DNA of 64,000 nt from assembly GCA_016840065.1 (NCBI GenBank), contig JAEOTB010000037.1, positions 32,001 to 96,000 on the forward strand, given 5' to 3'. This document shows positions 2,368 to 57,610 of the stretch, piece after piece. Every line of letters begins with the position of its first letter. Position 1 is the stretch's first letter. The notes below the pieces were generated by a model. It did no database searches, had not been told where the DNA came from, and was given only the letters and a program-made list of their open reading frames with translations. A program made the position numbers and the translations under genes. Origin of the DNA: Candidatus Hermodarchaeota archaeon (GTDB taxonomy: Archaea; Asgardarchaeota; Hermodarchaeia; Hermodarchaeales; Hermodarchaeaceae).

Positions 2368-5300
2368 ATGGTTTCAAAGAAAACCATCTTCTCGATTCTT
2401 TCCTTGACGGTTATTGCTATTTTGGTTCTCTCATTTATAATTCCGCCGCTATTACTGCCCCCAATTCCCAGGGATGAACCCTACGAGGATGTCCCACCAT
2501 TCGGAGCGGGTGTAGTAGTAAACACCACAGGCGATGACGCCCTACTCATTAACATCACTATTGATGATGTTCCCTTTGATTTACCGTGGGATATTAACCC
2601 CTTTGAAACCTTTGCATTGGTCTCCCCAAATGACCCACCCCGATACTGGAAAAGGACCGCCTACGACACATACTCCTACATCTCGGGCTCAGGCTCAAGC
2701 TGGGGAAAGGATAACTCCACAAGGGTTCCATTAGCAGAACGTGCAAGTGCAGGTGATACAGTCTACACTGTCTCGATGAACATAACACATGGTCTCGGTG
2801 GAGACTTGGAACTATATTCTCTTTGGCCTAACCCTTGGATTATTCCTGATTCTGTGACTTCCCCCTACTTACAACTCCCCTACACTCTTGAAACAGATCA
2901 GTATGGTAGCACGATACTTAATGGACGGTTCGATTCCAATGGTACTTCTGAGCTAACCTATCAAGTTACCTACGATTCCACGCTTAACTGGACTGAAATT
3001 AGACCACAGGCAGTGTCAGCCAGCAACACACCCTCTAGCTTTAGCCTTTACCAAACCCAAGGATTAGATCAGCTAAGTACGCCTACTTCAAATGATATTC
3101 AGAACAGGCTTGACGCTATTCTAGCTGGGGTTCCAGACAATGCCTTTGAAGAGGCATTCGCCATCCTAGAATACTTCAAGGAAACCTTCACCTTTGATCT
3201 TTCTGCGGAGAGACCTGGATCTTCTGAATGTGTCGAATGGTTTCTATCAGGAGGGACAGGAATCGGTCAGGATTTCGCAACAGCCTACACCATGTTTCTT
3301 CGGAAACAGGGCATAGCTGCACGCCCTGTTTTTGGAGCCGCTCTGGGAGTCCTAGATGGTAGTCAGCGGAGTTTACAGTTCATGCATTTACATTTCTGGG
3401 TGGAAGTTTACATCCCGATTAGTAGCTCAGAGGGTTATTGGCTACAGTTTGACCCTACTCCTCTGCCAGGTTTTATCACAGGAACCCCCCCGGCAAGAGA
3501 CCCTTATGTTGTTAGCACATATTACGATCTTGCCATTGATGTTCCTACTCCCATCGTGGACCGAGGCGTCCAGTTCCAAGTACAGGCCACACTCACAAAG
3601 GATGGCTTGCCAGCTCCAGGTGAGACTGTAGAGTTCTGGGATGATACAGAAAATTGGCTTCTAGGCACCAACACCACATCTGCAACAGGAGATGCTTCAG
3701 TTACATTCACTTACAATAACTCGGCGATTGTGGGGGTACACATTCTTCGCGCATATTCACACGGAAAGAACGACTATGGTGGAATCGGGCTTCATGGTGC
3801 CGCTAATCTCACTTTCTTTGCTTCACCCCTAGAGCTTAACCGCACTTCGCAAATCCTGTTTAATGGCACCCTTACGGATGCAGTGAATGGAAGGGGAGTC
3901 TCTCAATATGAGACAATGTTGACTGAAGTCGATATCTACATCAACGCTCAAATAGCTGCTAGCGAATTCACTGATCAAGATGGAATATACACCACTTTCT
4001 ATTCTATCCCCCAGGACCACCATCCGCTTGGAGTGGCAACTGCCTTTGCTTCATTTAGTGTGCCCGGCGTGATTGATCCAGTTGTGAGTCTTCCTCAGGT
4101 GCTGAACATCACAGCTCGGTCCAAACTCTCCATTCAAGCAGTACCCAATGCTGCGCGCGCAAATAGTAATGTGAGCATTTCTGGGCAATTACTTTTCGAA
4201 AATGATACAGCGATACCTGGAGTCACTGTTCAGATATTTTGGAACGGAACACCTCTAGGAGGAGTCATCACAGATGGTAGTGGGAACTTTCTCTATGAAC
4301 ATAATGCGACATCTCTTGGTCAGGTGACCGTTGAGGCACAATACCTTGGTGGGGCGAATGTTTTTGGCTCAAGAGGAACCGTTCCAGTTGTTATCCATGA
4401 CGATGGCACAATCGTAGTCTTCGTTGACGACGATGACGGGGACGACTTAACACAGCGCGGAAACTGGGTTCAGTTTACTGGTTGGGTTGAGAACTCGACT
4501 GGACAGCCTCAAGGAGGTGTCACTGTCAACCTCTTCTTCAACGGGAGCTTCATCGTCACGACCACAACGAATGCGAGTGGCGGTATTGATTACTGGTATC
4601 AAGTACCAACAAGTCAGCCAGTTGGATTATTAGAAGTAACTGGTGATGTGGTCAGTTCTACCTTGCAGGTTGTGAGCACACTAGACTATTTGAGTATCAA
4701 CTCGACAACCCAGCTGATTAGCCTCCAATTCAATGCGAGCCAAGCCCGTGTTGAGGAGGGTATCGTTTTCACAGGTCACCTTGTAGACGATCAACTCGGG
4801 CAAATTTCTGGTGCAAATATATCTGCTGAACTATCTTATGACACTACAGTCATCTCATTAGGCTGGACTCTCACTCAGGCTAATGGTGTTTTTCAATTCA
4901 TTTCTACACTGCCAGCAAGCATCCCTGCAACTGTTTCGTCTGTAAACTTCAGTGCAAGTTTTAATGGTGATGTCTTTTACGGAACCAGTAATGCGTCCCA
5001 AACGCTGGATGTTTTCGTGAATGTTACATTGATAATTGACGTAGATAATGGACCTCACCCAGGAAGAACCAGTATCAGTGTTAACGGAACCTTGAGGGAC
5101 AGTTTTGGACGATCCCTGTCAAACCGTGAAATTCTCTTAATATTCAGCGGAGAAGTAGTATTTTCAGGGAGTACAAACAATCAAGGAAGAGTAAGCTTTA
5201 CACTTCAACTACCATCAGGGTTACCTCAAGTTAGTAGCTATCCCGTTCAGCTTCAGCACAATACAGTCATACTAATTGAATCAAATCAAGAATTAATCTT

Positions 5301-5802
5301 AGTCGAGGCAGAAATAATAATGCAATTTCCAATCCCTATCGGATATATCATACTCTTAGCAATTTTAATCATCGGAGCTATTATAGCAGTTATTATCTAT
5401 CGTCGGCTTAGAGGTCGAGGTCCCCGAGGGTCTAGAGGAGGCCCCTCAGTTGACGCGGCATCAATGTTAACTGAACTCCGCCAACTCCTCAGCGACCAGA
5501 AGTACCGGGAGAGCATCCTCTACGCCTTCCGGATGTTTGAAACAATCGTTCAGGGTAAACTTGGAATTTTCCGAGATCCAAACATGACGCTGCGCGAATT
5601 TGCCAACCTGACGACTGCCCAAGGAGGGTTAGATACGACAAGCATGCAGGTCTTTATCAGAGGAGTGGAAGAAGCCAAGTTCAGCGATCACCAAATATCC
5701 TACCAAACATGTTTAACGACGCTCAATGCGTTTGCGAACAACTATAATGTACTTACTGGCGGTTCTCTCCGCTTTGTTACAAGTCAAGAGACGCCGCAAT
5801 AA
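2368..5802 (+). CDS. Membrane-anchored transglutaminase-like domain protein with Ig-like repeats and DUF4129-like C-terminus
   Basis: N-terminal TM; QDFATAY..GIAARPVFG..HFWVEVY..WLQFDPT transglutaminase-fold motifs; beta-rich repeats with many N-x-S/T; C-terminal TM then TLREF..EEAKFS; first gene of a MoxR operon. Confidence 0.8.
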   Translation: MVSKKTIFSILSLTVIAILVLSFIIPPLLLPPIPRDEPYEDVPPFGAGVVVNTTGDDALLINITIDDVPFDLPWDINPFETFALVSPNDPPRYWKRTAYDTYSYISGSGSSWGKDNSTRVPLAERASAGDTVYTVSMNITHGLGGDLELYSLWPNPWIIPDSVTSPYLQLPYTLETDQYGSTILNGRFDSNGTSELTYQVTYDSTLNWTEIRPQAVSASNTPSSFSLYQTQGLDQLSTPTSNDIQNRLDAILAGVPDNAFEEAFAILEYFKETFTFDLSAERPGSSECVEWFLSGGTGIGQDFATAYTMFLRKQGIAARPVFGAALGVLDGSQRSLQFMHLHFWVEVYIPISSSEGYWLQFDPTPLPGFITGTPPARDPYVVSTYYDLAIDVPTPIVDRGVQFQVQATLTKDGLPAPGETVEFWDDTENWLLGTNTTSATGDASVTFTYNNSAIVGVHILRAYSHGKNDYGGIGLHGAANLTFFASPLELNRTSQILFNGTLTDAVNGRGVSQYETMLTEVDIYINAQIAASEFTDQDGIYTTFYSIPQDHHPLGVATAFASFSVPGVIDPVVSLPQVLNITARSKLSIQAVPNAARANSNVSISGQLLFENDTAIPGVTVQIFWNGTPLGGVITDGSGNFLYEHNATSLGQVTVEAQYLGGANVFGSRGTVPVVIHDDGTIVVFVDDDDGDDLTQRGNWVQFTGWVENSTGQPQGGVTVNLFFNGSFIVTTTTNASGGIDYWYQVPTSQPVGLLEVTGDVVSSTLQVVSTLDYLSINSTTQLISLQFNASQARVEEGIVFTGHLVDDQLGQISGANISAELSYDTTVISLGWTLTQANGVFQFISTLPASIPATVSSVNFSASFNGDVFYGTSNASQTLDVFVNVTLIIDVDNGPHPGRTSISVNGTLRDSFGRSLSNREILLIFSGEVVFSGSTNNQGRVSFTLQLPSGLPQVSSYPVQLQHNTVILIESNQELILVEAEIIMQFPIPIGYIILLAILIIGAIIAVIIYRRLRGRGPRGSRGGPSVDAASMLTELRQLLSDQKYRESILYAFRMFETIVQGKLGIFRDPNMTLREFANLTTAQGGLDTTSMQVFIRGVEEAKFSDHQISYQTCLTTLNAFANNYNVLTGGSLRFVTSQETPQ

Positions 5803-5838: not shown

Positions 5839-7242
5839 TTGTCAGAGAGTAGCGATGACAGTTCTGGTCCACCAGTAGCAGAAGTGAAAAAGAAAGGAAA
5901 AACCACGACAATCATCGTGTTTTGTTTCGTGTTCATCATTGCTTGGATGCCACTGGTGATCAGTATAACTGGTGTCGGTGATGTCGATACTATGAGCTAC
6001 TCCATGTACAGCGATGGCTACAATGGCTGCTCCCAACTTAGAAATACCCTCCAAGGAACAGGAGGATTTGAGGTTCATCCCTTAATCAGCTCACTTAGTG
6101 TTGTTAATGGGATTAACCGAAATAGTGTCCTCTGCGTTTTAGGCCCAACACTCGACTTCTCGATTATTGAGGCGTCCGCGCTCATCGACTTCTTTGTGAG
6201 TGGCTCATGTCTAATCATCGCTGATGACTTCGGTAGTGGAAACCGAATTCTTGATAACCTAGCACTTCTTATCCCTCCACAATATTTTCCCTCAGAACCG
6301 TTTGGGTTCACTTTAAGGTCTGCTGTTCGTTTTGAGCAGCGTCTTCTTCTTGACGCAGGATCAAATGATGATGGGAAACCTCTGCTACCTGCGATCACAA
6401 GCTTCAACGACGGTGGAGCCATTTTCCAAACAACACAAAGAGTGGTAATGAATTACGCCACAGGAATCCAAGGAATCGGAGGGAACTTCACAGTAATCGC
6501 CACTTCCTCTCCTAACTCTTGGGTCACCTCTGATTGGAACAATCCAGCATATGACCCTGAAAGAGGTGACACTGCAGGGCCCTTTACTCTGATAGGGGTT
6601 CTGAGTGTTGCTAATGGATTAATTGTACTTGTTAGTGATCCTAGTATCTTCATCAATGATATGATAGATCGTGCTGATAACAGAAGTTTCGCGTTGGAAT
6701 TATTCACCTACCTTGCCGAACAGACAAACACGAACACGATTATAATCGATCATAATCATTTGTCTTGGAGTCCTCTATCACCTGTACTTTATGTTGGTCT
6801 AGTGATGGGTCAGATAACCTATTTGTCAACGAATTGGCTGCTAGCACCTTTGGCACCGATAATGGCGATTTGGATGGTGAGAAAGTGGGTTACATTTGGG
6901 CGACCGAAGGAGGAGGAACCTAGCGAGGTGTACAGGCTCAGGGGACAGACAGCGTTCAGAGCTGAGTTAAATCGCTATCTTCAAAGCGAGCAATATGATG
7001 ATGCAATTCAGGTGATGTATACTCAACTAAAACGAGAACTTGTACGGCGGCACAGTCTTCGAGGATTCGATATATCAAGACTTCTAGCGGCGAGGTCAGG
7101 TTCTCTCCCTGAACGAGAATTATCACTCCTGAAAGACGATTTGGAAGCTTTGGAAAAAGCAACAGGAGCAAGGCGGCGCATTGACCGCAGCAAGTTCCTC
7201 GACCTATTTTGGAGAATAAAACGAATTAGAGAAAAATACTGA
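5839..7242 (+). CDS. DUF4350-like membrane protein of MoxR operon
   Basis: N-terminal TM, IIADDFGSGN and LVSDPSIFINDMI motifs, operon context. Confidence 0.75.
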   Translation: MSESSDDSSGPPVAEVKKKGKTTTIIVFCFVFIIAWMPLVISITGVGDVDTMSYSMYSDGYNGCSQLRNTLQGTGGFEVHPLISSLSVVNGINRNSVLCVLGPTLDFSIIEASALIDFFVSGSCLIIADDFGSGNRILDNLALLIPPQYFPSEPFGFTLRSAVRFEQRLLLDAGSNDDGKPLLPAITSFNDGGAIFQTTQRVVMNYATGIQGIGGNFTVIATSSPNSWVTSDWNNPAYDPERGDTAGPFTLIGVLSVANGLIVLVSDPSIFINDMIDRADNRSFALELFTYLAEQTNTNTIIIDHNHLSWSPLSPVLYVGLVMGQITYLSTNWLLAPLAPIMAIWMVRKWVTFGRPKEEEPSEVYRLRGQTAFRAELNRYLQSEQYDDAIQVMYTQLKRELVRRHSLRGFDISRLLAARSGSLPERELSLLKDDLEALEKATGARRRIDRSKFLDLFWRIKRIREKY

Positions 7243-7340: not shown

Positions 7341-8383
7341 ATGAGTGAACCTCCATCAACCCCAACTCCCCCTCCTCCAGCAGAACCTGCACCCCCTCCA
7401 GTAGAATCATCTGGAATGACAATAGCCGAAGTCCGTAGCCACGCTACACGAATACTCGACGAAGTAAACAAACTAGTAGTCGGGAAGCGCCACTTACTTC
7501 AGAATATACTGATTGGTCTGCTCAGCGGCGGGCACATCCTGCTAGAGGGCGTTTAAGGAACGCTCGGCAAAAAGGTGTTCCCGGTATTGCCAAGACGTAT
7601 GCAGCTAATACATTCGCGCAAGCTGTTGGTTGTTTGTTCAAACGAGTCCAATTCACTCCAGACCTCTTACCTGTTGACGTGACTGGGCATTCAATCTTTA
7701 ATCCTAGCTCCGGTGAGTTTTCTCTCCGAAAAGGTCCAGTCTTTACAAACGTTCTCTTAGCTGACGAGATTAACCGCTCCCCGCCAAAAACCCAATCGTC
7801 TCTACTTGAAGCTATGCAGGAAAAGCAAGTTACTATCGAGGGAACGACACTCCCCCTGCCCCACCCATTTATGGTTCTAGCGACACAAAATCCAATCGAA
7901 CTTGAGGGGACCTATCCTCTTCCCGAAGCGCAAGTTGACCGTTTTCTCTTCAAACTTCACGTCGATTATCCTTCTGAAACAGAGGAGGTAGAAATTCTTC
8001 GTCGGAGACATATCGGAGTAGGAAGTCGGGTAGACGCTGTAGTAAACCCGAACATCATTTTACGGATGCAGAGTACAATAAGAGAAGTGTTTGTCGAACC
8101 GCACATTTTGAACTACATAAGAGACATAGTCGTGCGGACTCGGAATGACCCTCAAATCCTCATCGGCGGCTCCCCACGTGCCTCAATTGTTCTCTTAGAA
8201 ACCTCGAAAGCCCACGCCGCGTTACAAGGCAGAGACTTTGTAACACCAGACGACATAAAGATGCTAGTACGCCATACCTTGAACCATCGCTTAATTCTGA
8301 AACCTGAAGCAGAACTTGAGGGCGCTTCGGTCCACTCTGTAATCGATCGCATACTCCGTCAGATTGGAGTACCGGGAGCATAG
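7341..8383 (+). CDS. moxR: MoxR-family AAA+ ATPase, spliced: exon1 7341-7545, exon2 7572-8383 (338 aa)
   Basis: Removing a 26-nt BHB intron joins ORFs 7341..7556 and 7634..8383, giving [14 protein letters not shown] (Walker A), [18 protein letters not shown] (Walker B), [22 protein letters not shown]. Confidence 0.92.
7546..7571 (+). other. 26-nt BHB intron in moxR mRNA
   Basis: Central helix UGCU/GGCA, bulges AG^A and AA^A, intron hairpin GGGCGUU-UAAGG-AACGCUC, exon stem GGGCACAUC/GGUGUUCCC; splicing gives CTA G|AA GGT GTT CCC = LEGVP. Confidence 0.9.
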
Positions 8384-8389
8384 ACCCAA

Positions 8390-9712
8390 ATGTTCAGCGA
8401 GAGAGGCCGTACTGTTCTTCTCATCGGAATATTCGTACTAGTCGGGGGTTTCGCCTTCACAAACTACTTCCTGACACTCCTAGGTATCTTCCTAATTGTA
8501 GGATCAGTTGTAACCTCACCATATTTCCAACTTACAATGCCCTTAGAAAGTTTACAGGTCACACGGGAAATAGACAAGGCTAACTTCTTTCAGGGAGACT
8601 TCATCCACATCAAACTCGCAATAAGAAACACTGGACGAAGTCGGATTGACTCCATACGTATCTTCGATGTATATCCTGATATTTTCAGACTAGTTCTGGG
8701 GAAAAACGAGCTAGTCACACGAATCGACGCAGGACAAACAATAAAGTTTTCCTATATTATGCAGGGAACACTCCGGGGAAAATATACAATTGGACCCACG
8801 AAGTTCCAGATACATGACAGGCTTGAGTTCAGGTTCGAAGAGCTATCGGCAGAAAACCTAGATGAGATATTGATTTACCCAAGTTACCAAGACGCGCGGA
8901 TTATGGAATCCCTTGCTGCACGGCGAAGGGTAGGTTACGCATTTGGTATTCATAAAACTCGGCAGAAAATGGGTTCAGAGGATTTTGTAGGTATTCGTCG
9001 TTTTGTGAGTGGTGATGAATCTAGAAGGATAGATTGGAAAGCAGTAGCGCGTACTCACAAATTAATGGTGCGCGAGTACGAAACAGAGCGAAACATGAGA
9101 GTCTTCATAATTTTGGATTGTGGAGATACGATGAGTGCGGGAAAGGCTGAGAACAGTAAACTTGAGTATGCGATTCGTGCAGCACTTCTCCTTGCGAAAG
9201 CTGCGATGGAGCGTAAGGACAAGGTGGGGCTACTGGCCTGGTCTACCAGCCAAGATACCTATCTTAAACCTAGTCTTGGGGAGGGCCATTATTATCGACT
9301 CCTCGACATCTTGGCTGCTATAGAAGCAGGAGGAGAGTTTGATTTAGCTGCTGCAGTACAATTCGTCGCAGCGCATGTAACACAGCAGAGCTTCTTCATC
9401 ATCCTTTCAGATTGTGAAGCAAATAGAGCCCAGCTTGAGAAGGGTGTCAGATTGATTCGCGGTCACAAGCACCACGCTATAATTATCGCGCCTTTCGGTC
9501 CATGGTTCGAAATAGAGGATGTATACCTTTCACCAGTTGAACGTGCATTGGGTGAGGCAATAGTATACAAATTACTTGAAGAGCGCCGTGCCCTCTCACA
9601 GAGCTTCCGACGCGTAGGAGTTCCAATTATTGATGTGGGTCCTGGTGACATTTTACCGACACTACTAAGTGAATACCTGAAGGCAAAGAAGAAGGGAGTT
9701 GCACAAATCTAG
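8390..9712 (+). CDS. DUF58 (vWA-like) protein of MoxR operon
   Basis: DFVGIRRF..GDESRRIDWKAVAR..LMVREYE, IILDCGDTM. Confidence 0.88.
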   Translation: MFSERGRTVLLIGIFVLVGGFAFTNYFLTLLGIFLIVGSVVTSPYFQLTMPLESLQVTREIDKANFFQGDFIHIKLAIRNTGRSRIDSIRIFDVYPDIFRLVLGKNELVTRIDAGQTIKFSYIMQGTLRGKYTIGPTKFQIHDRLEFRFEELSAENLDEILIYPSYQDARIMESLAARRRVGYAFGIHKTRQKMGSEDFVGIRRFVSGDESRRIDWKAVARTHKLMVREYETERNMRVFIILDCGDTMSAGKAENSKLEYAIRAALLLAKAAMERKDKVGLLAWSTSQDTYLKPSLGEGHYYRLLDILAAIEAGGEFDLAAAVQFVAAHVTQQSFFIILSDCEANRAQLEKGVRLIRGHKHHAIIIAPFGPWFEIEDVYLSPVERALGEAIVYKLLEERRALSQSFRRVGVPIIDVGPGDILPTLLSEYLKAKKKGVAQI

Positions 9713-9760: not shown

Positions 9761-10963
9761 TTGGCGCTTCGGGGTGTAGCTGTCGTATCGTTCATAGTCT
9801 TTACTATGATTATTTTCTTGAACATCGATACTCAAGTCTGGAGTTCGCAGGTTCTAGTTACGTTTGCCATAGAGGCCCGGAACTTCATAAGCACTCTAAT
9901 CTCAATTCTTTCCTGGTTATTTGGACAATTACTTGGATGGTTATTTGGTCTTGGACATGAAGAGCTGACACAGATTTATGAGGCGACCAATGCATACTTC
10001 GCAGCACTGGGGTTTGGTAGTGTTCGAACCCTTGACCAAGCCATCCCAGCATTTCTCAGCAGCCTCTACTACCTCGGTTTTCAGCTACTCTTTCTGGCAG
10101 CGATCCTTGCAGGCATATTATCCCTATTCCGAATCAGCGGGCGGCTCACATCAATGTGCTTTGTCTCAATGATAGGGCTAGCCATGCTCGGAGCTGCTGC
10201 CCCCTCACTAACATTTCTAGAAACCTCCACCAGCTTCTTTGGAGCCAACTGGAGTGCAGATTCGAGCATCTTCTTAGATCCCGGAGCATTCTTTACTTCC
10301 ACAATTTTCCTTGTATCGATAATTTGTTACATCTATCTTGAAGCATCATATCAGGTTGTTTATTTTCACTCGCTTCTTGAGCCTCCCTCCATTAGAGAGG
10401 TACAACTCCGACGTCAATTATCAAGGCTCCGAGCTGATGCAGAACGAGAGGTTCCAGTCAGGAGTGACGAAGAGATTCCTGTCCCCAAGGTACTTCAGCG
10501 GATGTTGGGTTCCGAAGCCTTTAGGGTGATGCGGGAGGTTATTGGAAGGAAATTACTGCGCCGCGAATGGCTAATTGAATTAGAAGAGGCTCATGAAATT
10601 CGGCGATTAAATTCCTTTGTAGATAATTTGTTTCGAGTTGACGTTGAAGCAGAGTTGACCTTAACTGCTCGTGCAGCTACTCCCTCGCTCTCAAAAATGG
10701 CGGTTCTCTCACTTGTTTCCACCGTGCTTCGTTTTGCAGGTATCATCGTTGTTGCCTACTTGTCCTTTTATCCACTTTTCTTCATTGGGAGCATTGCTCC
10801 CTCGGTCATAATAGAATCTATCGATTTCCAATTCCTTACTGAAAAAATCATTATCCTCCTTCTACCCTTGTGCTTACTCTTTCCTCTTGCTTCAACTATT
10901 ATCAGTCGTCTCCGTCAACGTAATTCCCAATCAGAGGACACTACAAGTCAATCACAACAATAG
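9761..10963 (+). CDS. Polytopic membrane protein, last gene of MoxR operon
   Basis: Several hydrophobic segments; true start may be ATT at 9743 behind GGAGGTGA. Confidence 0.7.
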   Translation: MALRGVAVVSFIVFTMIIFLNIDTQVWSSQVLVTFAIEARNFISTLISILSWLFGQLLGWLFGLGHEELTQIYEATNAYFAALGFGSVRTLDQAIPAFLSSLYYLGFQLLFLAAILAGILSLFRISGRLTSMCFVSMIGLAMLGAAAPSLTFLETSTSFFGANWSADSSIFLDPGAFFTSTIFLVSIICYIYLEASYQVVYFHSLLEPPSIREVQLRRQLSRLRADAEREVPVRSDEEIPVPKVLQRMLGSEAFRVMREVIGRKLLRREWLIELEEAHEIRRLNSFVDNLFRVDVEAELTLTARAATPSLSKMAVLSLVSTVLRFAGIIVVAYLSFYPLFFIGSIAPSVIIESIDFQFLTEKIIILLLPLCLLFPLASTIISRLRQRNSQSEDTTSQSQQ

Positions 10964-20846: not shown

Positions 20847-22295
20847 ATGAAGGAGAAACTGAAACAACTAGACGAGTTTCGCTACTGGCTCGACAAGACA
20901 GCCCGCCCCAAGATGAGAGTAGGCGCGATGTTATTTGCTTCACGCAAAGTTATACAACAAATAGAAGATAGCGCGGTTGAACAATTAACCAACGTCGCCT
21001 GTCTACCAGGTGTTATTGAGCCAGTTTTAGCCATGCCAGACGCACATTGGGGATATGGCTTACCAATGGGCGCAGTCGGGGCCTTTGACGCTGAGGAGGG
21101 CGTGATATCAGCTGGGATGACCGGTTTTGATATCAACTGCGGTGTCCGGTTAATTCGTACTAATCTAACTCAGGCTGAAGTTAAGCCCAAACTTCGTCAG
21201 CTCATGGAGGAATTGTTCAGGCGCGTGCCTGCTGGCGTCGGCTCTAGAGGTAAGATTCGCTTGAGCAATTCCGAGTTGGATGGTGTTTTACAGCTTGGTG
21301 CTCGATGGGCAGTCGAGAGTGGTCGCGGAGTTGACGCGGATTTAGAGCACTGTGAGGAAAGGGGCAATATGGAGGGTGCCGCAACCGGCTTGCCAGAGCT
21401 TTCAGAGCGGGTACGAACGCGTGGAAAACCTCAGCTGGGCACACTCGGTGCCGGTAATCACTACCTTGAAGCCCAAGTAGTTGATGAGGTGTTTAATGAA
21501 GAGGCAGCCTCCCGTTTTGGTTTAGAAAAGGGGAAAGTGGTTGTGATGTTACATTGTGGATCTCGCGGTTTCGGTCACCAAGTGGCAACTGATTACCTGA
21601 AGAGTATGGAGGTGGCTGCGCGGAAGTATAAAATTTGGTTGCCAGACAGACAACTCGTCTGCGCTCCAACCACATCGCCAGAGGGGCAAGCCTACTATTC
21701 CGCGATGAAGTCAGCCGTGAACTACGCCTTCTGCAACCGGCAAGTAATGACTCACTGGATTCGGGAAGGCTTTGAAACTGTCTTTGGGCGAGACTGGGAA
21801 AAACTAGGTCTTCACCTAGTTTATGATGTTTGCCATAATATATGCAAGCTAGAAACCCACGAGTTACACGGTGCAAAAAGGCAACTCTACATTCATCGAA
21901 AAGGTGCTACTCGTGCTTTTGGACCCGGCAACCCGCTTATCCCCCCTCACTACCAACCCGTTGGACAGCCAGTACTGATTGGTGGCTCTATGGGCACAGC
22001 CTCTTATGTACTAGTTGGTACAGAGCAGGCAATGAAAGAATCGTACGGTTCTACATGCCATGGTGCTGGACGCGCTATGGGTCGAAAAGCAGCCACAAGG
22101 AGATTTCATGGTAGGGAGATTCAACGTTCGCTTGAGCAATCAGGTAAAGTGATAAAATCTCATAGCGCCAAGCTACTCGCTGAAGAAGCGCCCAAGGCTT
22201 ACAAGGATGTCCACATGGTGATTGACGCAGTCCACGGAGCAGGAATTTCTCTGAAAGTCACGCGCCAGATTCCAATGGGCACTGTCAAAGGCTGA
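20847..22295 (+). CDS. rtcB: RNA-splicing ligase RtcB
   Basis: MPDAHWGYGLPMG, GFDINCGVR, LGTLGAGNHYLE, HCGSRGFGHQ, HRKGATRA, STCHGAGR, EEAPKAYKDV. Confidence 0.97.
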   Translation: MKEKLKQLDEFRYWLDKTARPKMRVGAMLFASRKVIQQIEDSAVEQLTNVACLPGVIEPVLAMPDAHWGYGLPMGAVGAFDAEEGVISAGMTGFDINCGVRLIRTNLTQAEVKPKLRQLMEELFRRVPAGVGSRGKIRLSNSELDGVLQLGARWAVESGRGVDADLEHCEERGNMEGAATGLPELSERVRTRGKPQLGTLGAGNHYLEAQVVDEVFNEEAASRFGLEKGKVVVMLHCGSRGFGHQVATDYLKSMEVAARKYKIWLPDRQLVCAPTTSPEGQAYYSAMKSAVNYAFCNRQVMTHWIREGFETVFGRDWEKLGLHLVYDVCHNICKLETHELHGAKRQLYIHRKGATRAFGPGNPLIPPHYQPVGQPVLIGGSMGTASYVLVGTEQAMKESYGSTCHGAGRAMGRKAATRRFHGREIQRSLEQSGKVIKSHSAKLLAEEAPKAYKDVHMVIDAVHGAGISLKVTRQIPMGTVKG

Positions 22296-42367: not shown

Positions 42368-43723
42368 CTACTTCTTTACTGTTATCTTCTGTACTACTCC
42401 AACAGCCACTGTGCGACCACTATCACGAATCGCAAACCGACCCAGCTGCTTCATATCGGCAAACCGCTCTAACACAATTGGCTGCACTGGACTGAACTTG
42501 ACGATAGCTGATTCACCTTGTTTGATGAAGTCTGGCTTCTCCTCCACCGTCTCGCCAGTACGAGGATCAATCTTGCTGATAAGCTCAGTGAAAGTCGTTG
42601 CCATCTGGAGTGTGTGAGCGTGCATAACTGGTGTGTACCCAGCGGCTATGGCTCGTGGGTGATGGATTACGATTATTTGTCCAACGAAATCTGTGATAAC
42701 CTTGGGTGGGTCGCTGACATGACCCATGACATCACCACGTTGAACCTCGCCTTTTCCAATGCCACGAACATTGAAACCGATGTTGTCGCCCGGCTCAGCC
42801 TTCTGCATTTTCTCATGGTGCATCTCGATTGACTTGACTTCGCCCGTATGCCCAGAGGGCATGAAGATTACTTTATCGCCAACTTTCAAAACACCAGTTT
42901 CAACTCTACCAACGGGAACAGAGCCTACGCCAGTAATGGTGTAGCAGTCCTGGATTGGTACTCGCAATGGTGCTTTGAGTGGTTTCTCTGGCTGTACGAA
43001 CTTGTCAAGAGCCTGGAGCAAGGTGGGACCTTTATACCAGGGCATGTTCTCACTAGCCTTATCCAGCCCATCTCCTGTCCAACCGCTGGTTGGGATGAAA
43101 TCGACTTTGCTTGGATCGAATTGAGCACCCTGGAGCACTGAAGTGACTTCTGCCTTGATTTCCTCGTAGCGTTCTTGGCTCCAAGGAGGCGTAGAGTCGT
43201 CCATCTTGTTCACAGCAACAGCGACCTGCTCGATACCAAGGGTTCGGGCAAGGAATGCGTGCTCACGGGTCTGCCCGCCCGCACTGATTCCAGCTTCAAA
43301 CTCACCCTTACGTGATGAAACGACAAGAATCGCCGCATCAGCCTGGCTGGCACCCGTAATCATGTGCAAGAATTAAGGAGCGTACCCCTCAATTATTCTT
43401 GATGAAGTCCGCGTGCCCAGGAGCGTCAATCAGCGTGAAGTAGTGTTTTTGTGTCTCGAATTTTCGAAAAGCTAGATCGATTGTTAGCCCACGTTCTCGC
43501 TCTTCCTTCAAGCGATCCATTACTTACCCCTTCATATCGTGTGATATGAAGTGTAGGCGAACTTGAACGAGGCGTCTTTCGTTTCTGATGCTAGCTTTTC
43601 TAATTTGAGCATTTCTTGTTTCGTTAGCGCACCCGTGACATATACGAGGTGGCCCATTAGCGTTGATTTACCATGATCAACGTGACCAATGATGATCAAG
43701 TTGATGTGTGGTTTAGTAGCCAT
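42368..43723 (-). CDS. tuf: Elongation factor 1-alpha, spliced from three exons: 43723-43553, 43523-43396, 43364-42368 (431 aa)
   Basis: Spliced product reads [15 protein letters not shown]|[37 protein letters not shown]|[13 protein letters not shown]; the middle exon is missing from the ORF track; 171+128+997 = 1296 nt. Confidence 0.95.
43365..43395 (-). other. 31-nt BHB intron 2 of tuf mRNA
   Basis: Exon stem UCAU/AUGA, central helix CAAG/CUUG, bulges AA^U and CA^C, intron hairpin AAUUGAGGGG-UACG-CUCCUUAAUU; splicing gives AAG AA|C ATG = K N M. Confidence 0.93.
43524..43552 (-). other. 29-nt BHB intron 1 of tuf mRNA
   Basis: Central helix GCCU/GGGU, bulges AC^A and AA^G, perfect 9-bp hairpin CUUCAUAUC-ACAC-GAUAUGAAG; splicing gives GCC TAC|GTA ATG GAT = A Y V M D. 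Confidence 0.92.
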
Positions 43724-43855: not shown

Positions 43856-43888
43856 TTGGCAAAGTGTTTACTTATGTTTGTAGAGAAG

Positions 43889-46800
43889 TCAAAGTGGTAG
43901 GAGGGCTTGGAAGGGGGATAACATAGGTGCTACTGTGGCTACTAGCACGCCAAGTATTTGTCCAAGAAGATTACGGACGATTTGACCCACTACTTGATTG
44001 AGAAGAACCTTAACCACTCCAGCAAGAGTGAGATTACAAACCATCTTCCCCACAGGGAGTAGAACGCTATACCAGAGCCAAACCACACTATCACGAACAA
44101 TTGGTGATAACACACTAAGTATCCATGTAGCTATGAGATGAGCAAAATCTGCTAGCGTAAAGAAAGGAAAGCCCAACGCTTGCAGACTTGCCCCGAAGCC
44201 GGTGATAACTAAGCTTAGTAACCCCGTCGCCGATAAACTCGTAGCAGTAATACCCAAACTAAACACTGACCCGCTGATGTATTGGAGAACTATAGCGAAA
44301 ATACTGAATACAACGCCAATAAGCCAACCATATTGTGTAAGTGTAGCGAGGAAGGTGTTGATAGTGAATGTTAAGAATATGAAAAGCGCTGTACCGATTG
44401 CGCTGAGAATCAATGGGAGCAAGCTGCTGAATAAACTAGTAAGACCACTCCCAGTTGAAGCCGAAGAAGTGGAGGCTAAACCCCCACCAAGAGCCCGACT
44501 AGTTAAACTAACAACGGCAAAATTCTGTATCAAAACGAGAAGCGGCGCTAATGAAGTGTATCGAGCATCCATTGTATTAATGCCAAGACTTGTGAGGATA
44601 CTCTGAATGGCAGTAGTGATAGTGATTGCTACTAGAAGGGCCTTCCAGCGGCTGGGATTAAGTAACTGCCGAACACGCTGTTTGATTGTGAAAAACAGGT
44701 TCTTTGCATAATCCTTCAGCCTGTCTGTTAGCTGGTCGCGAGCGCGACCTGTAAGCATCTGTATGTAACTAGTTTCAAGAATAATTTGGGAAGGAAACTT
44801 TTGGCGCACAAACCGATCGAAAACATAGAATCTGCTGTAATATCCCCCTTTGTAGGTGTTTCCCCCACGAGAGCCGTATTGCCAGCTATTCCCTAATGTT
44901 CTATCTAGATTCTCGAAGATTGCGGGCCATCCACCAGGGTTTCCCCATCGACCTGTTTGATCTTTACCATTGTAGATGAAGGAAAGTTTTCCCCATTCCT
45001 TGTATGTAGACCATATTTTCTCATCAATGGATAGACTTCTCACGGTTTTTCCTCTATCAATTTCCTGATCAGATTGTAGAGGAACAGGGCAGATACGACC
45101 CACCCCAAGTACTGCACAGAAATAGATGAGGGTGTTCAAATCATCCCGAGTTACATCATCTAATCCATAACGCCATGTTCGATCACGAGCAGAATTCTTT
45201 CTTGCCGTCCAAAACGACCACGTTAATCTATAGAGTTTATTCTCTCCAAATCCACGAGTTGTACGACGGAGCCCGTAATACTGATTCAATAGTCCTACAT
45301 GTCGGTATTTGACATGAGTGGGCTCCAGTTGCATCGTCACCCCAACTGGTCCAGCAGGCGTGTTAACCAATTGAGTACCAGTTAAAGCCAGAGTTGTCAG
45401 GCCCATTAGCGGGTCAATATGCCCTTCACGACACTCGAATTCTACGAGCCGAAGCCCACCTAACTGTGGTTCGTCTGGTTTGGGTGGCATTTCATCATTC
45501 TGTTGAGGTTTCAGAATGAACAAGTTCCATTTAGTTTTCATTACCACATCAAGACGTTGTTTCATCGAAAGTAGTACGCCTTGAATGAATGGATTTAGTT
45601 CTTGAAGTGTCGGAGGGGCTGCGATGAATAATTGATTCTGATATTTCCTCTTTACCTCTTTGACGGCTTCGGTCTGGAAAAGAGGACCTTCGTCACAAAG
45701 AATACCTCTAGGAACCCCAGCAATGCAGCTGTAAAATTCAGCAAAGAGTAGGTATTGTCCTCTAATAGTTTTAGTCGAGAAGCCCTCAATATCTCCTGGA
45801 TAATGTGTGTGTATCTGGGCATTGTTTGGATTTAGTAAATCCCAAAGACACCAGAAACTCTTTCTCTTTGCTGAAACTCCAGTAAATCCAGTTCGAGTGG
45901 GAATAAGAAATGTGGGTAGTTCAATCCACCTATTACTCCATGTAGGCGCTTGGCTTGGTTTGTATCGAGCAGTAATCGTGGGATTAAGTGGAAGAATGAG
46001 AATAGCACCTTGCTGATTCTTGATATGGTTGATAAGGCTAGTATCTTGCTGGGCTAGTTCTGCAGTATCAATGTTTGAACGGTCTGGTTTGAGTATGAGA
46101 GCATTCTTGATATGGGCGACAACTGCATCTGAGTGGACTGGAAGACCATGATTCCTTCGGGCTTCTTGGAAATCAGCGTTGTCACTTATTCGATATATCA
46201 CTTGGAAAGTGGAGTAGGTTTTCCCTTTGTGATGTGTGTAGGTAATGAAGTTGTCCCGGACAATTCCAAGGTTTTCTTCTTCAAAATAAACACGTTTTGT
46301 ACCTTGCCCTGGAGGCGCTAACGCCATACGCTCTTCGTAAACCGCTGATGCTTGCTGCCAGTAAAGCCCCTTCGCATACCTTCCATCTCCTATGCCCGCC
46401 CAATGCCGAAAGATAAGAACTTCTGTTGTTAACTTAAGTGAGCCAATCACAGGAATAGGTGTGCTATTCAGAATCTCCTTTTCCAACCCCCTAACCTGCG
46501 AGTCAATCATCACACCCTCCTCAACAAGTGTAGCCATTGCTGGTAAAATTTCTTGGATTTGGGGAATAAGGATACCAATCTCCTTAACCGTAGTCCAGTC
46601 TAATCCCTTCATCTTGTCCAGTGTTTTCCTGATAGTTCCTTGAATTTGTTCTTTCATTATGCCTATACGGCCACACTTCAACGCTTGATCCAAGATATTG
46701 ACATACGGGAAAGTCTCTAGTGTTGTTGGGTAAATGGCTTCAGCACCATAGTCGGGAGTTGTGAAAGTACCTGAAGCTCCAGGTGGGGGAGGTGAGGTCT

Positions 46801-49800
46801 CATCCTCACCAAAAAGGAAAGCTTGCAGAAAAAACCCAATTACTGGCAACTCTAACAGCTTGCTTATCAGAAATTCAAGAGGTACGAATATGATGTTAGT
46901 TAGTGCATTTCGAACCGCTGTAATGATGCCGAATATTGCCTGTAATAGCACCATTCCTAATGTCATAAGTATCGTCTTCCCAATTTCTATTAAAACGCTC
47001 AAACACTGTGTAATGAAATCCCACGCAGGTCCTAGAATTGCCTTGGGGTCGAAAAAGCTCAATTGCCCGTCTGTCACCTTCTTGATAGCATACTGGGTAG
47101 CTAACTCGCCTACAACCTCTGGTAGACTCAAGGGTTTCCCTGAATGCCTGTTCAGAGCCTCCGCTACCCCCTTAATCACATACATAGGCTCTTCAATATA
47201 ACCAGCCTCAAAAAGCAGAATAGCCTGCACACTTCTGTCATATACGACTTGCCAGCCGAATCTGTCTTCTAACCCTGCATTCAGTTTCAACAGTCGCAGT
47301 AACCCGGTCAGCTTGTAAGATGCTTCTTCCAGATTTCGTATCTTAGCATAGTGAATTAGTTCATCAAAGAGACGCTGAGCCTCCAGCCCCACCTGATTCC
47401 ACGTCTCTGAACCCGCATCCTTGTACATCGACTCCGCAGTAGATAAGAGGGAATCGCGAGCTTCTTGGATGCGTTCCTGCAAAGCAACCTCGTCCCTCAG
47501 CCTCGCAAGCTTTGCCAAGGTTTCCGCTACTTTTACCTCCACTTGTTTCTGATGGATTACGGCCAGTATCGTGTTCTCTAGGTACTTGTCTAGAGACTCA
47601 TAGCCTAAATCCCATCCCCGCACCACCACCTCTCCATAAAAGAGGAAGGTGGGCACAAACCAGCCCATACTCAAAGACCCCTCAAAGACCTGAGTGGGAG
47701 CAAGATAGGGCTTGACACGGGACCAGTCCGCCTCCCCTACCTGATACTCTGGTGTGGTTGCAAAGGGACTCGCCTCGACTGATAGCAGCTGCGTTGACTG
47801 GAGGGCAGACTGCAAGAACTCGTCTTCCACCAGTGGATTTGAGTCAAAACACCATCGCTGGAGGTCACCCTCACCCAAATAGTACAGATCATCGCCTAAC
47901 TGTTGTTGAAGGGCTTGAAGCCGTAACATCTCTGCCAGCGATAGACGAGCCGCATCTACGGTGTGTTTTGTCGGGTCAACAGCGGTACGATAGCCCACTA
48001 AGAGGAAGCTACCTAATACTGTAGTGAGGGGTTCTACTTGGAAGGTTGATAGGTTCAAGGCTTGGAAGAATTGTAGGAGGTCTTGGGCATAGGCATCCAA
48101 GTTGGTTTGAGCGTGGTGGTGTAATTGCTCATGGAAGGTCAGAAAAGAAATATCTCCAGGGAGGCTAGCTCCAAGCCCTGCGAACATAAAAAGCAGAAGT
48201 TTGGGATCAACAAACGCAAGACCAGCTAGGCAGATAACAATCCAGGGTCCATTCATTAGGATGTAACTACCAATCAGTTGCTTATCGTCAAGAGAAGCAA
48301 AGACATTGAGAATTGTGGTCTTGGCCTCGGCTTCTCCTGCCTGTAGGAGTGAAGTTCCCACAAACTCAGCCCGTAGGGTCACCACACCCACAAGACTTTG
48401 GGACACCAGCCAATCTAGTGTAGCCTCTCCTTCGGCGTTGGTGTAGGCTTCGCCAAGAAGTGATGTGCCGTTTATCCCCTCAAGGAAGAAGCGGATAAGC
48501 TGATGTGCCACTGGCTGTCCAGTGCTAGTGGTTACGATTGCAGTTATTTGGGTTGTCTGTTGAGTTGTAAGATCCGCTGGAACCGACAATGTAAGTTGGG
48601 TTGTCGCCACCACACAGAACTCTATTATCTCACTGCTTGCACCAGCCGGACTCTTTGCGATGACAGTCGCCGTGTAGCTGTGCATCCCCTGTAAGGGACC
48701 GATGATACCCGATGTCATCCACACACTACCATAACAGGAGAGAGCAAAGCTTTCTGGTACACTGTTGCCATCGGTGTCAAGCTGGACGGTGAGTGTGAGG
48801 AGGTCGTCAGGGTATGTGGCGTTCAGAGTGACCTGTACACTCAAGGTGTCTGTATCACAAATTGTCGCATTACCATAGAGGGTAGATAGCTTTGCAGTCA
48901 AGATGGTGGGCGGATGGTTGCAGAGGGTGACACTCTGCTCTGCTTGGCAAGTTCGTAATGCCAAGTCATATCCAATGAGGGTGAGGATGTGGTCACCATC
49001 TGGTAACGTGCTAGTATCGAGGGTAAGGGTGTGGCTACCTGATGAGTGGAGGCGGAATAGCACTACCTCGCCATCTAATAGTAAGATTGCTTCTCTCATG
49101 TTCGCATCGGCGAGAAAGAGGGTGATTTCTACAATGCCTGTGAGGATGGTTCCTGCGGTGGGGGTGTCAATGCGAACCACTGGGTTCTCCAAGTCCACAG
49201 TGAAGGCTTCGGTGTATTCTGCGACATTACCCGCAATGTCAGTGGCTTTGATGAGAACTGTGTGTGGAGCCGCTGTAACTGCTATTGTAAAGGTGGTCTC
49301 GTTGGTGTTCTCTGCAACACCAGAGAATATGCCATCGATGAAGAGTTCGATTGTCTCGCAATGCCTGTCTGTTACAAAGACCACCACGTCAAGCGTGGTG
49401 TTTTCGGTGAACCCTGCCTCCGTTACTGGCAGAAAGACCTCCAAGATGGGTGCTGTGCTATCTATGAGAAAAGTGACACTCCGAGCAAGAGCATTTCCTG
49501 CGCGGTCCATTGCCTGAACCAGTATTGTGTGGGAACCATCAGTGAGATTGGTTAAGGTATATTGGCGGTAACTACCATCGAGTTCAACAGCTAGGGTTCC
49601 ATCGAGGTAAACAGTAAAGGTTGCAATCCCTGCGGTGGTGTCGCTGGCACTCCACTGAATACGCGGATTTACACTAGAAGTGTGAGAGTCTTCCAAGGGG
49701 GCTGTGATGGCTAGAGTCGGGGAAGTTGCGTCTGTGGTAAAGATGTTTGAGGTGCTTTGGTGATTGCCAGCCAAATCAATGGCTTCAACGGTCAAAGTGT

Positions 49801-57436: not shown

Positions 57437-57610
57437 GTTCTTTTGAAGCTATACTGCCTGTTTGTCACTAGATATTCTACAGATACCAATCATTGGATTT
57501 TTTGATGATCAAAAGAATTCTGTTTCCTTATTTTTGGCTTGGAGATGATTAGTTATCAAGCGACGAGAACTCTTTTGGCAATAAGCCTAGCTTTGAGAAG
57601 GGGAGGTGTT

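Follow-up and report, generated by a model that had tools for sequence, protein, structure and literature searches.

The closest described counterpart of the element reported here is the intron in the cbf5 pre-mRNA of Crenarchaeota, which is 16-44 nt long and carries a BHB or relaxed BHB motif (Watanabe 2002; Yokobori 2009, PMC2738675). A BHB intron has also been described in the 5′ UTR of Haloferax HVO_1309 (Schwarz 2020, PMC7714728), and the same 2020 paper gives cbf5 as the only other reported BHB mRNA intron. In Asgard archaea, non-canonical tRNA introns have been gained repeatedly and independently by a route that is still unknown; as far as the accessible text of these two sources goes, both treat introns of tRNA genes only, and the word “mRNA” is absent from that of the preprint (PMC11291895; bioRxiv 10.64898/2026.10.13.758758). 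In the literature that we searched, cbf5 is the sole archaeal coding sequence with a BHB intron, and the search, made mostly outside subscription journals, returned no published work on mRNA introns of Asgard archaea. Tocchini-Valentini is said to have predicted one more archaeal mRNA intron in 2011. In eukaryotes, the unconventional splicing of XBP1/HAC1 mRNA depends on IRE1, which cuts at two separate stem-loops, and on a tRNA ligase (RtcB in animals), which rejoins the exons.

We have analyzed a window of 64,000 nt from one genome (G000), together with its congeners G001, G002 and G003, and consider it very probable that a 26-nt insert in its moxR gene is a genuine BHB intron of the moxR mRNA. 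We judge the insert to be a variant of the cbf5-type archaeal mRNA intron, apparently in a new gene and a new phylum. Like the cbf5 intron, it is short, carries the BHB motif in full or relaxed form, interrupts a codon after base 1 at an essential motif and shows patchy gain and loss; the cbf5 hosts also have a hetero-oligomeric EndA, comparable to the two-subunit EndA of G000. Unlike the cbf5 intron, it lies in the gene of an AAA+ ATPase outside RNA metabolism and in another phylum, it is one of at least seven such inserts in its genome, dissimilar introns occupy the one site in two distant families, and its splicing is inferred from sequence. The cbf5 family is defined by an intron in the catalytic Asp codon of cbf5, whereas the host gene here is moxR. 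The moxR intron is predicted to work like the cbf5 intron, yet it is not that intron. As in HVO_1309, whose mRNA the splicing endonuclease processes at BHB sites, the moxR mRNA is predicted to carry such sites, but the moxR intron breaks the reading frame whereas that of HVO_1309 sits in an untranslated region. The motif and the type of enzyme are the same as for the Asgard tRNA introns. With XBP1/HAC1 the moxR intron shares a short, frame-breaking intron and the pairing of an endonuclease with a tRNA ligase, but IRE1 is not EndA and no BHB is involved, and homology is not implied.

The insert splits the Glu codon immediately 5′ of the Walker A motif. The parts of the locus are as follows.

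7341..7545, + strand: moxR exon 1, from the ATG up to base 1 of the Glu codon preceding Walker A
7530..7539, + strand: 5′ half of the exon-exon helix, in the codons for Gly-His-Ile, with 8 of 10 pairs here and 10 of 10 in G003
7540..7546, + strand: 5′ half of the central helix with the 5′ bulge; cutting is predicted after 7545
7546..7571, + strand: BHB-type intron of 26 nt, with a 7-bp stem (7547-7553/7559-7565) and a loop (7554-7558) containing an in-frame TAA
7566..7572, + strand: 3′ half of the central helix with the 3′ bulge; cutting is predicted after 7571
7572..8383, + strand: moxR exon 2, with Walker A, AAA_3 (PF07726, E 2e-60 from profile position 6) and AAA_lid_2 (PF17863)
7573..7582, + strand: 3′ half of the exon-exon helix, in the codons for Glu-Gly-Val-Pro

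Re-reading of 7530-7582 gave the sequence and position of the 26-nt insert exactly as first described. The central helix (7540-7543/7566-7569) consists of four base pairs, U-A, G-C, C-G and U-G, and is flanked by two 3-nt bulges (7544-7546 and 7570-7572); the intron itself folds into a hairpin with a 7-bp stem and a 5-nt loop. Deletion of 7546-7571 gives a single ORF of 338 aa with the Walker A motif GVPGIAKT, whereas the unspliced frame runs from the ATG at 7341 to the TAA at 7554-7556 and encodes 71 aa, with the remaining MoxR in a different frame. Walker A is therefore intact in the spliced product only, and the earlier claim that splicing would restore MoxR while the unspliced frame stops at the UAA in the loop agrees with these ORFs. 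The restored protein begins with a proline-rich low-complexity extension of ~25 residues (window 7341-7410). The central helix with its bulges, the flanking helices, the restored product and a host with EndA and a ligase are the sequence features by which a putative BHB intron is defined, and all of them are present here.

The fold alone carries little of this weight. In G000 the BHB fold differs from the best fold by no more than 1 kcal/mol, and a C-A mismatch next to the junction in the exon helix makes the motif relaxed on the exon side; in G003 the exon helix has its full 10/10 pairs, and an alternative fold is more stable than the BHB fold by 2.3 kcal/mol. The z-scores of the intron region (-1.0 to -2.7) are weak by themselves, a loose BHB pattern has 92,160 matches genome-wide, so that the motif alone is not beyond chance, and the same protein results from any of nine 26-nt deletions, with starts at 7546-7554. 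Both the significance of the element and its exact junction therefore rest on the comparative data and not on the fold.

The genome encodes two EndA subunits. The catalytic subunit has the Tyr, His and Lys residues and a K-P-K loop that aligns with the crenarchaeal-specific loop, and its best match is an Aeropyrum-type alpha subunit (E 6e-45; PDB 3p1z/3ajv, which we take to be from Aeropyrum pernix). The crenarchaeal-specific loop has been linked to the cleavage of relaxed motifs (PMC12397907). The other subunit and the ligase are located at these positions.

20847..22295, + strand: RtcB RNA ligase, likely the exon joiner (PF01139, E 7e-170)
G000 C10:100418-100678, ~4 kb beyond the window end: non-catalytic EndA subunit

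The contig that carries these two genes also holds a tRNA cluster and the introns of moxR, EF-1alpha and dnaG. The host thus appears to have an EndA able to take relaxed motifs, together with an RNA ligase. The EndA pair would cut both bulges, after 7545 and after 7571, and RtcB would join the moxR exons; only the spliced mRNA would then give an ATPase with Walker A, and the unspliced mRNA would give the 71-aa peptide.

Comparison within the genus shows that G002 lacks the insert exactly, with GAA GGT at the junction, as BHB cutting predicts, and an ORF of 338 aa. In G003 the insert is 25/26 identical to that of G000, the single change being in the loop; four-fold sites differ between the two at 61 of 147 positions (41%), and at that rate the binomial probability of such conservation is 2e-5. 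G001 is uninformative at this site owing to an assembly gap, and all 15 genomes studied of a sister genus are intronless. The dN/dS ratio of exon 1 is 0.045 against G003 and 0.008 against G002 (last 40 codons), that of exon 2 is ~0.05, and the values for moxR within the genus range from 0.04 to 0.06 at dS ~1. Both exons are under purifying selection. A case that had been named as refuting an intron, a recent inactivating insertion or duplication that has left moxR a pseudogene, was examined against these data. The in-frame stop and frameshift, the 6/8-nt likeness between the insert and the start of exon 2, and the patchy occurrence in the genus would all suit it. However, the insert is shared with G003 at a synonymous distance of ~1.1, both exons show dN/dS ~0.05 with no further breaks, moxR is near-universal in Asgard archaea (present in 372 of 400 genomes) and single-copy in G000 (one strong copy), and inserts at the same site are found in intact genes of another family, f9. 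We regard decay of the gene as highly improbable. Even less credible, to the point of being negligible, is an assembly or sequencing artefact. G000 was binned from a metagenome (83.9% complete, 5% contamination), but a diverged version of the insert is present in G003 and several other assemblies (the form seen in G003 is also that of three NCBI assemblies and one Logan run), and contigs of two runs span the site without differences, although both may derive from the source sample and so are not independent. All four DNA runs that were compared with the locus belong to a single study.

We searched 400 Asgard genomes with a pattern for any 15-70-nt insert at this moxR codon, using the reversed pattern as a control. 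Seven genomes match, namely G000, G003 and five of family f9 (all four genomes of one genus plus G162), and the reversed control matches none. Family f9 is probably Lokiarchaeia. The f9 inserts are AT-rich hairpins of 30-32 nt, with stems that are dissimilar to the G000 stem and weak (-2.7 to -4.3 kcal/mol), at the same junction. They have two bulges identical to those of G000 and an in-frame stop each, and cuts at the same points give full-length MoxR; in all seven genomes, cutting after base 2 of each bulge yields the codons of intronless genes. The intron-bearing f9 genes are otherwise open, with dN/dS of 0.02-0.03. Over the six variants, 87.5% of the cells of the central helix are paired, with one two-sided change from G-C to A-U, and the exon helix shows one two-sided change from A-U to G-C; pairing in the true register is 82%, against 33-56% for slid partners, and three of the six have U-U at the outer position of the central helix. 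As only two or three lineages contribute to these covariation counts, the shuffle figure of 7/500 should not be taken as a probability. The intron of G162 has its loop in common with the introns of the other f9 genus and differs from them in one compensating stem pair, which suggests that they are probably homologous. A second BHB intron was seen in the moxR gene of G162 (L137:1639-1668); it is 30 nt long and splits the Asp codon of FTPDLLP, its central helix is perfectly paired, and its stem has 9 bp. A scan of metagenomes with the same-site pattern gave 33 matches, none of them MoxR and all attributable to chance.

The layout in G000 also recalls the bypassing elements of T4 gene 60 and byps, which combine take-off and landing codons, a stop and a hairpin (PMC8211752). 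Programmed ribosome hopping would take off at the GTT before the TAA, land on the matching GTT 26 nt downstream and make the same protein from the unspliced mRNA. In G000 alone the insert does resemble such elements, being a short hairpin with a stop directly after a codon that recurs downstream (take-off GTT 7551-7553, stop 7554-7556, hairpin, landing GTT 7577-7579). The matched pair is nonetheless found in only one of the seven genomes; unlike the case in gene 60/byps it is not conserved in the other six, the landing codon in G003 would be GTG, and no matched codon of the f9 inserts restores the protein. Hopping also gives no reason why the 4-bp helix is conserved, why both bulges are identical, why there are compensatory changes and why other inserts of G000 have the same layout, and we consider it very unlikely. 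The BHB intron proposed in the preliminary description is instead favored by its exact absence in G002, its conservation in G003, the purifying selection, the same-site f9 inserts with compensatory changes, and the presence of EndA and RtcB.

Public collections annotate the moxR locus as fragments of 59-71 aa and 234-269 aa, and MoxR proteins named Hermodarchaeia or Hermodarchaeota are ~76% identical to the MoxR of G000, so that the host, an uncultured Asgard archaeon, probably belongs to Hermodarchaeia; the best-matching DNA runs for the locus come from marine sediment, and no RNA run is among those listed, a result that is neutral towards splicing. The gene callers' annotation accords with a split gene, in which translation yields two chains, a 71-aa N-terminal peptide and a C-terminal protein from re-initiation, that then assemble. 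The next ordinary start in G000 (TTG 7634), however, lies past Walker A, so that the motif would be lost; the Walker A codons are still conserved, though they would then be untranslated, and the RNA structure would be left unexplained. A split gene seems as improbable as a pseudogene, and splicing of a single gene is the reading that we retain.

The predicted spliced product is a MoxR AAA+ ATPase, having AAA_3, AAA_lid_2, Walker A and an adjoining DUF58 gene. The gene order confirms that moxR is internal in a row of five genes, as first noted; its neighbors are listed below.

2368..5802, + strand: upstream gene 1, transglutaminase-like membrane protein with Ig repeats (PF01841, PF16640)
5839..7242, + strand: upstream gene 2, DUF4350 protein (PF14258)
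8390..9712, + strand: downstream gene, DUF58/vWA protein (PF01882, PF13519)
9761..10963, + strand: fifth gene of the cluster, hydrophobic protein without a Pfam match

The gap 5′ of moxR is 98 bp and AT-rich. A scan for promoters and terminators with a bacterial consensus gave counts at chance level. The transglutaminase-like core (window 2368-5802) has GIGQDFA at the expected catalytic Cys motif, and the protein may be inactive. In G003-type genomes (G003 C70:13500-24502, L132; also L262-L265), long antisense ORFs of ~820-880 aa lie on both sides of moxR, one of them with a weak LAGLIDADG_3 match, and a 140-bp, 79%-identical copy of the moxR 3′ end precedes DUF58. The antisense ORFs and the duplicate indicate that the five-gene cluster is interrupted there.

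In the MoxR tree used here, a quick one, the intron-bearing genes lie in their own families among intronless sisters, and its starred branches force at least two changes. On this tree the intron-bearing genes do not form one clade, which implies at least two gains or a transfer, and their position inside their own families indicates that the gene was not transferred whole. The codons of G-H-x-L-L-E-G-V-P fix ~5 base pairs around a 7-nt loop. Pairing at positions 2-6 of the exon helix is found in 26 of 50 intronless genes versus all seven intron-bearing ones, and five synonymous choices round the junction are common to all seven intron-bearing genes, while the complete set occurs in none of 51 intronless genes; further intronless close relatives are also without it. 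This shared exon context is compatible with a preferred landing site, with selection that acted once the intron had been gained, or with co-conversion of a short tract. The codons would pre-form a stem with a 7-nt loop, the shape that a BHB splice leaves behind, and we propose on this ground that the moxR site is a recurrent landing place. Asgard archaea would have acquired an intron there on two or more occasions, or on a single occasion followed by sideways transfer, and after gain the helix would have been kept by holding the synonymous sites.

As for the source of the intron, no sequence in G000 matches it at more than 17/26 positions, and no tRNA intron there qualifies as a donor. The likeness of the intron start to the start of exon 2 (6/8 nt) is real. 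The local duplication that the preliminary description read into it is in keeping with the G000 lineage, in which the intron start re-encodes E-G-V, but not with the f9 introns, which lack this feature. More speculatively, the re-encoding may be what remains of an origin by fold-back or duplication.

Beyond moxR, G000 has six inserts with the same BHB layout in protein genes, two in EF-1alpha, one in dnaG, two in acs and one in an ORF on C85; only inserts that were checked against relatives are counted here. Five of the six are exactly absent in some relatives, and the dnaG insert is kept with stem changes.

43524..43552, - strand: EF-1alpha intron 1, 29 nt, exactly absent in G001 and G003
43365..43395, - strand: EF-1alpha intron 2, 31 nt, exactly absent in G001 and G003, with a pattern that matches just one of 400 Asgard genomes
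G000 C10:107682-107712 (L207): intron in the gene that we take to be dnaG, also present in G002 and G003 with changes in its stem
G000 C105:254-284 and C113:13561-13591 (L209 and L208): acs introns, 31 nt each, present in G003 and absent in G004 and G007
G000 C85: insert in an ORF, absent in G002 and G003

The moxR insert itself, the two acs copies and the further ORF bear out the earlier remark that such introns are not limited to translation genes. The two acs introns are at the same codon with diverged stems, and the two acs copies could be paralogues or bin contamination; the acs insert of G001 (L234) gives no clean BHB parse. An in-frame stop is present in six of the seven introns of G000, with a shuffle chance of 0.24-0.52 for each. 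EF-1alpha intron 1, which occurs only in G000 among the genomes compared, closely resembles the dnaG intron, with the same six preceding exon bases and common stem ends. The likeness suggests that introns may have been copied between mRNAs. An ab initio census of BHB motifs was too noisy to be used in the absence of homology (92,160 raw candidates, 652 after ORF filters), and several of its top candidates resemble intergenic spacers or alternative starts.

The moxR intron is probably a tolerated passenger, and a regulatory role is possible. A much wider proposal is that mRNA splicing by EndA and RtcB is general in Asgard archaea, with mobile mini-introns that settle where the codons of an essential protein motif already form a hairpin with a 7-nt loop and are copied between mRNAs, perhaps between classes, and with the moxR intron acting as a conditional ATPase switch; we put it forward as a tentative idea that is more doubtful than probable. 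If the moxR intron is spliced, the closest prokaryotic relatives of eukaryotes would use tRNA machinery to splice the mRNAs of ordinary proteins, and many Asgard genes now annotated as “pseudogenes” or as split would be intact. The moxR site is useful in this respect, because intron-bearing and intronless sister species are paired at one codon in two families with a common exon context, which makes the route of archaeal intron arrival testable, be it target-site preference, later selection or sideways transfer.

Directly upstream of EF-1alpha lies a gene for a 2796-aa protein with Ig-like repeats (window 43889-52279, - strand). The matches to G001 and G003 end at 43862 and restart near 57600, so the stretch that holds this gene may be an insertion. 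Introns in tRNA genes are also patchy in the genus: a 28-30-nt insert is absent in G001 (L214 vs C10:99189-99216), and a 21-nt insert is present in G002 only (L216/L225 vs G000 C10:114251).
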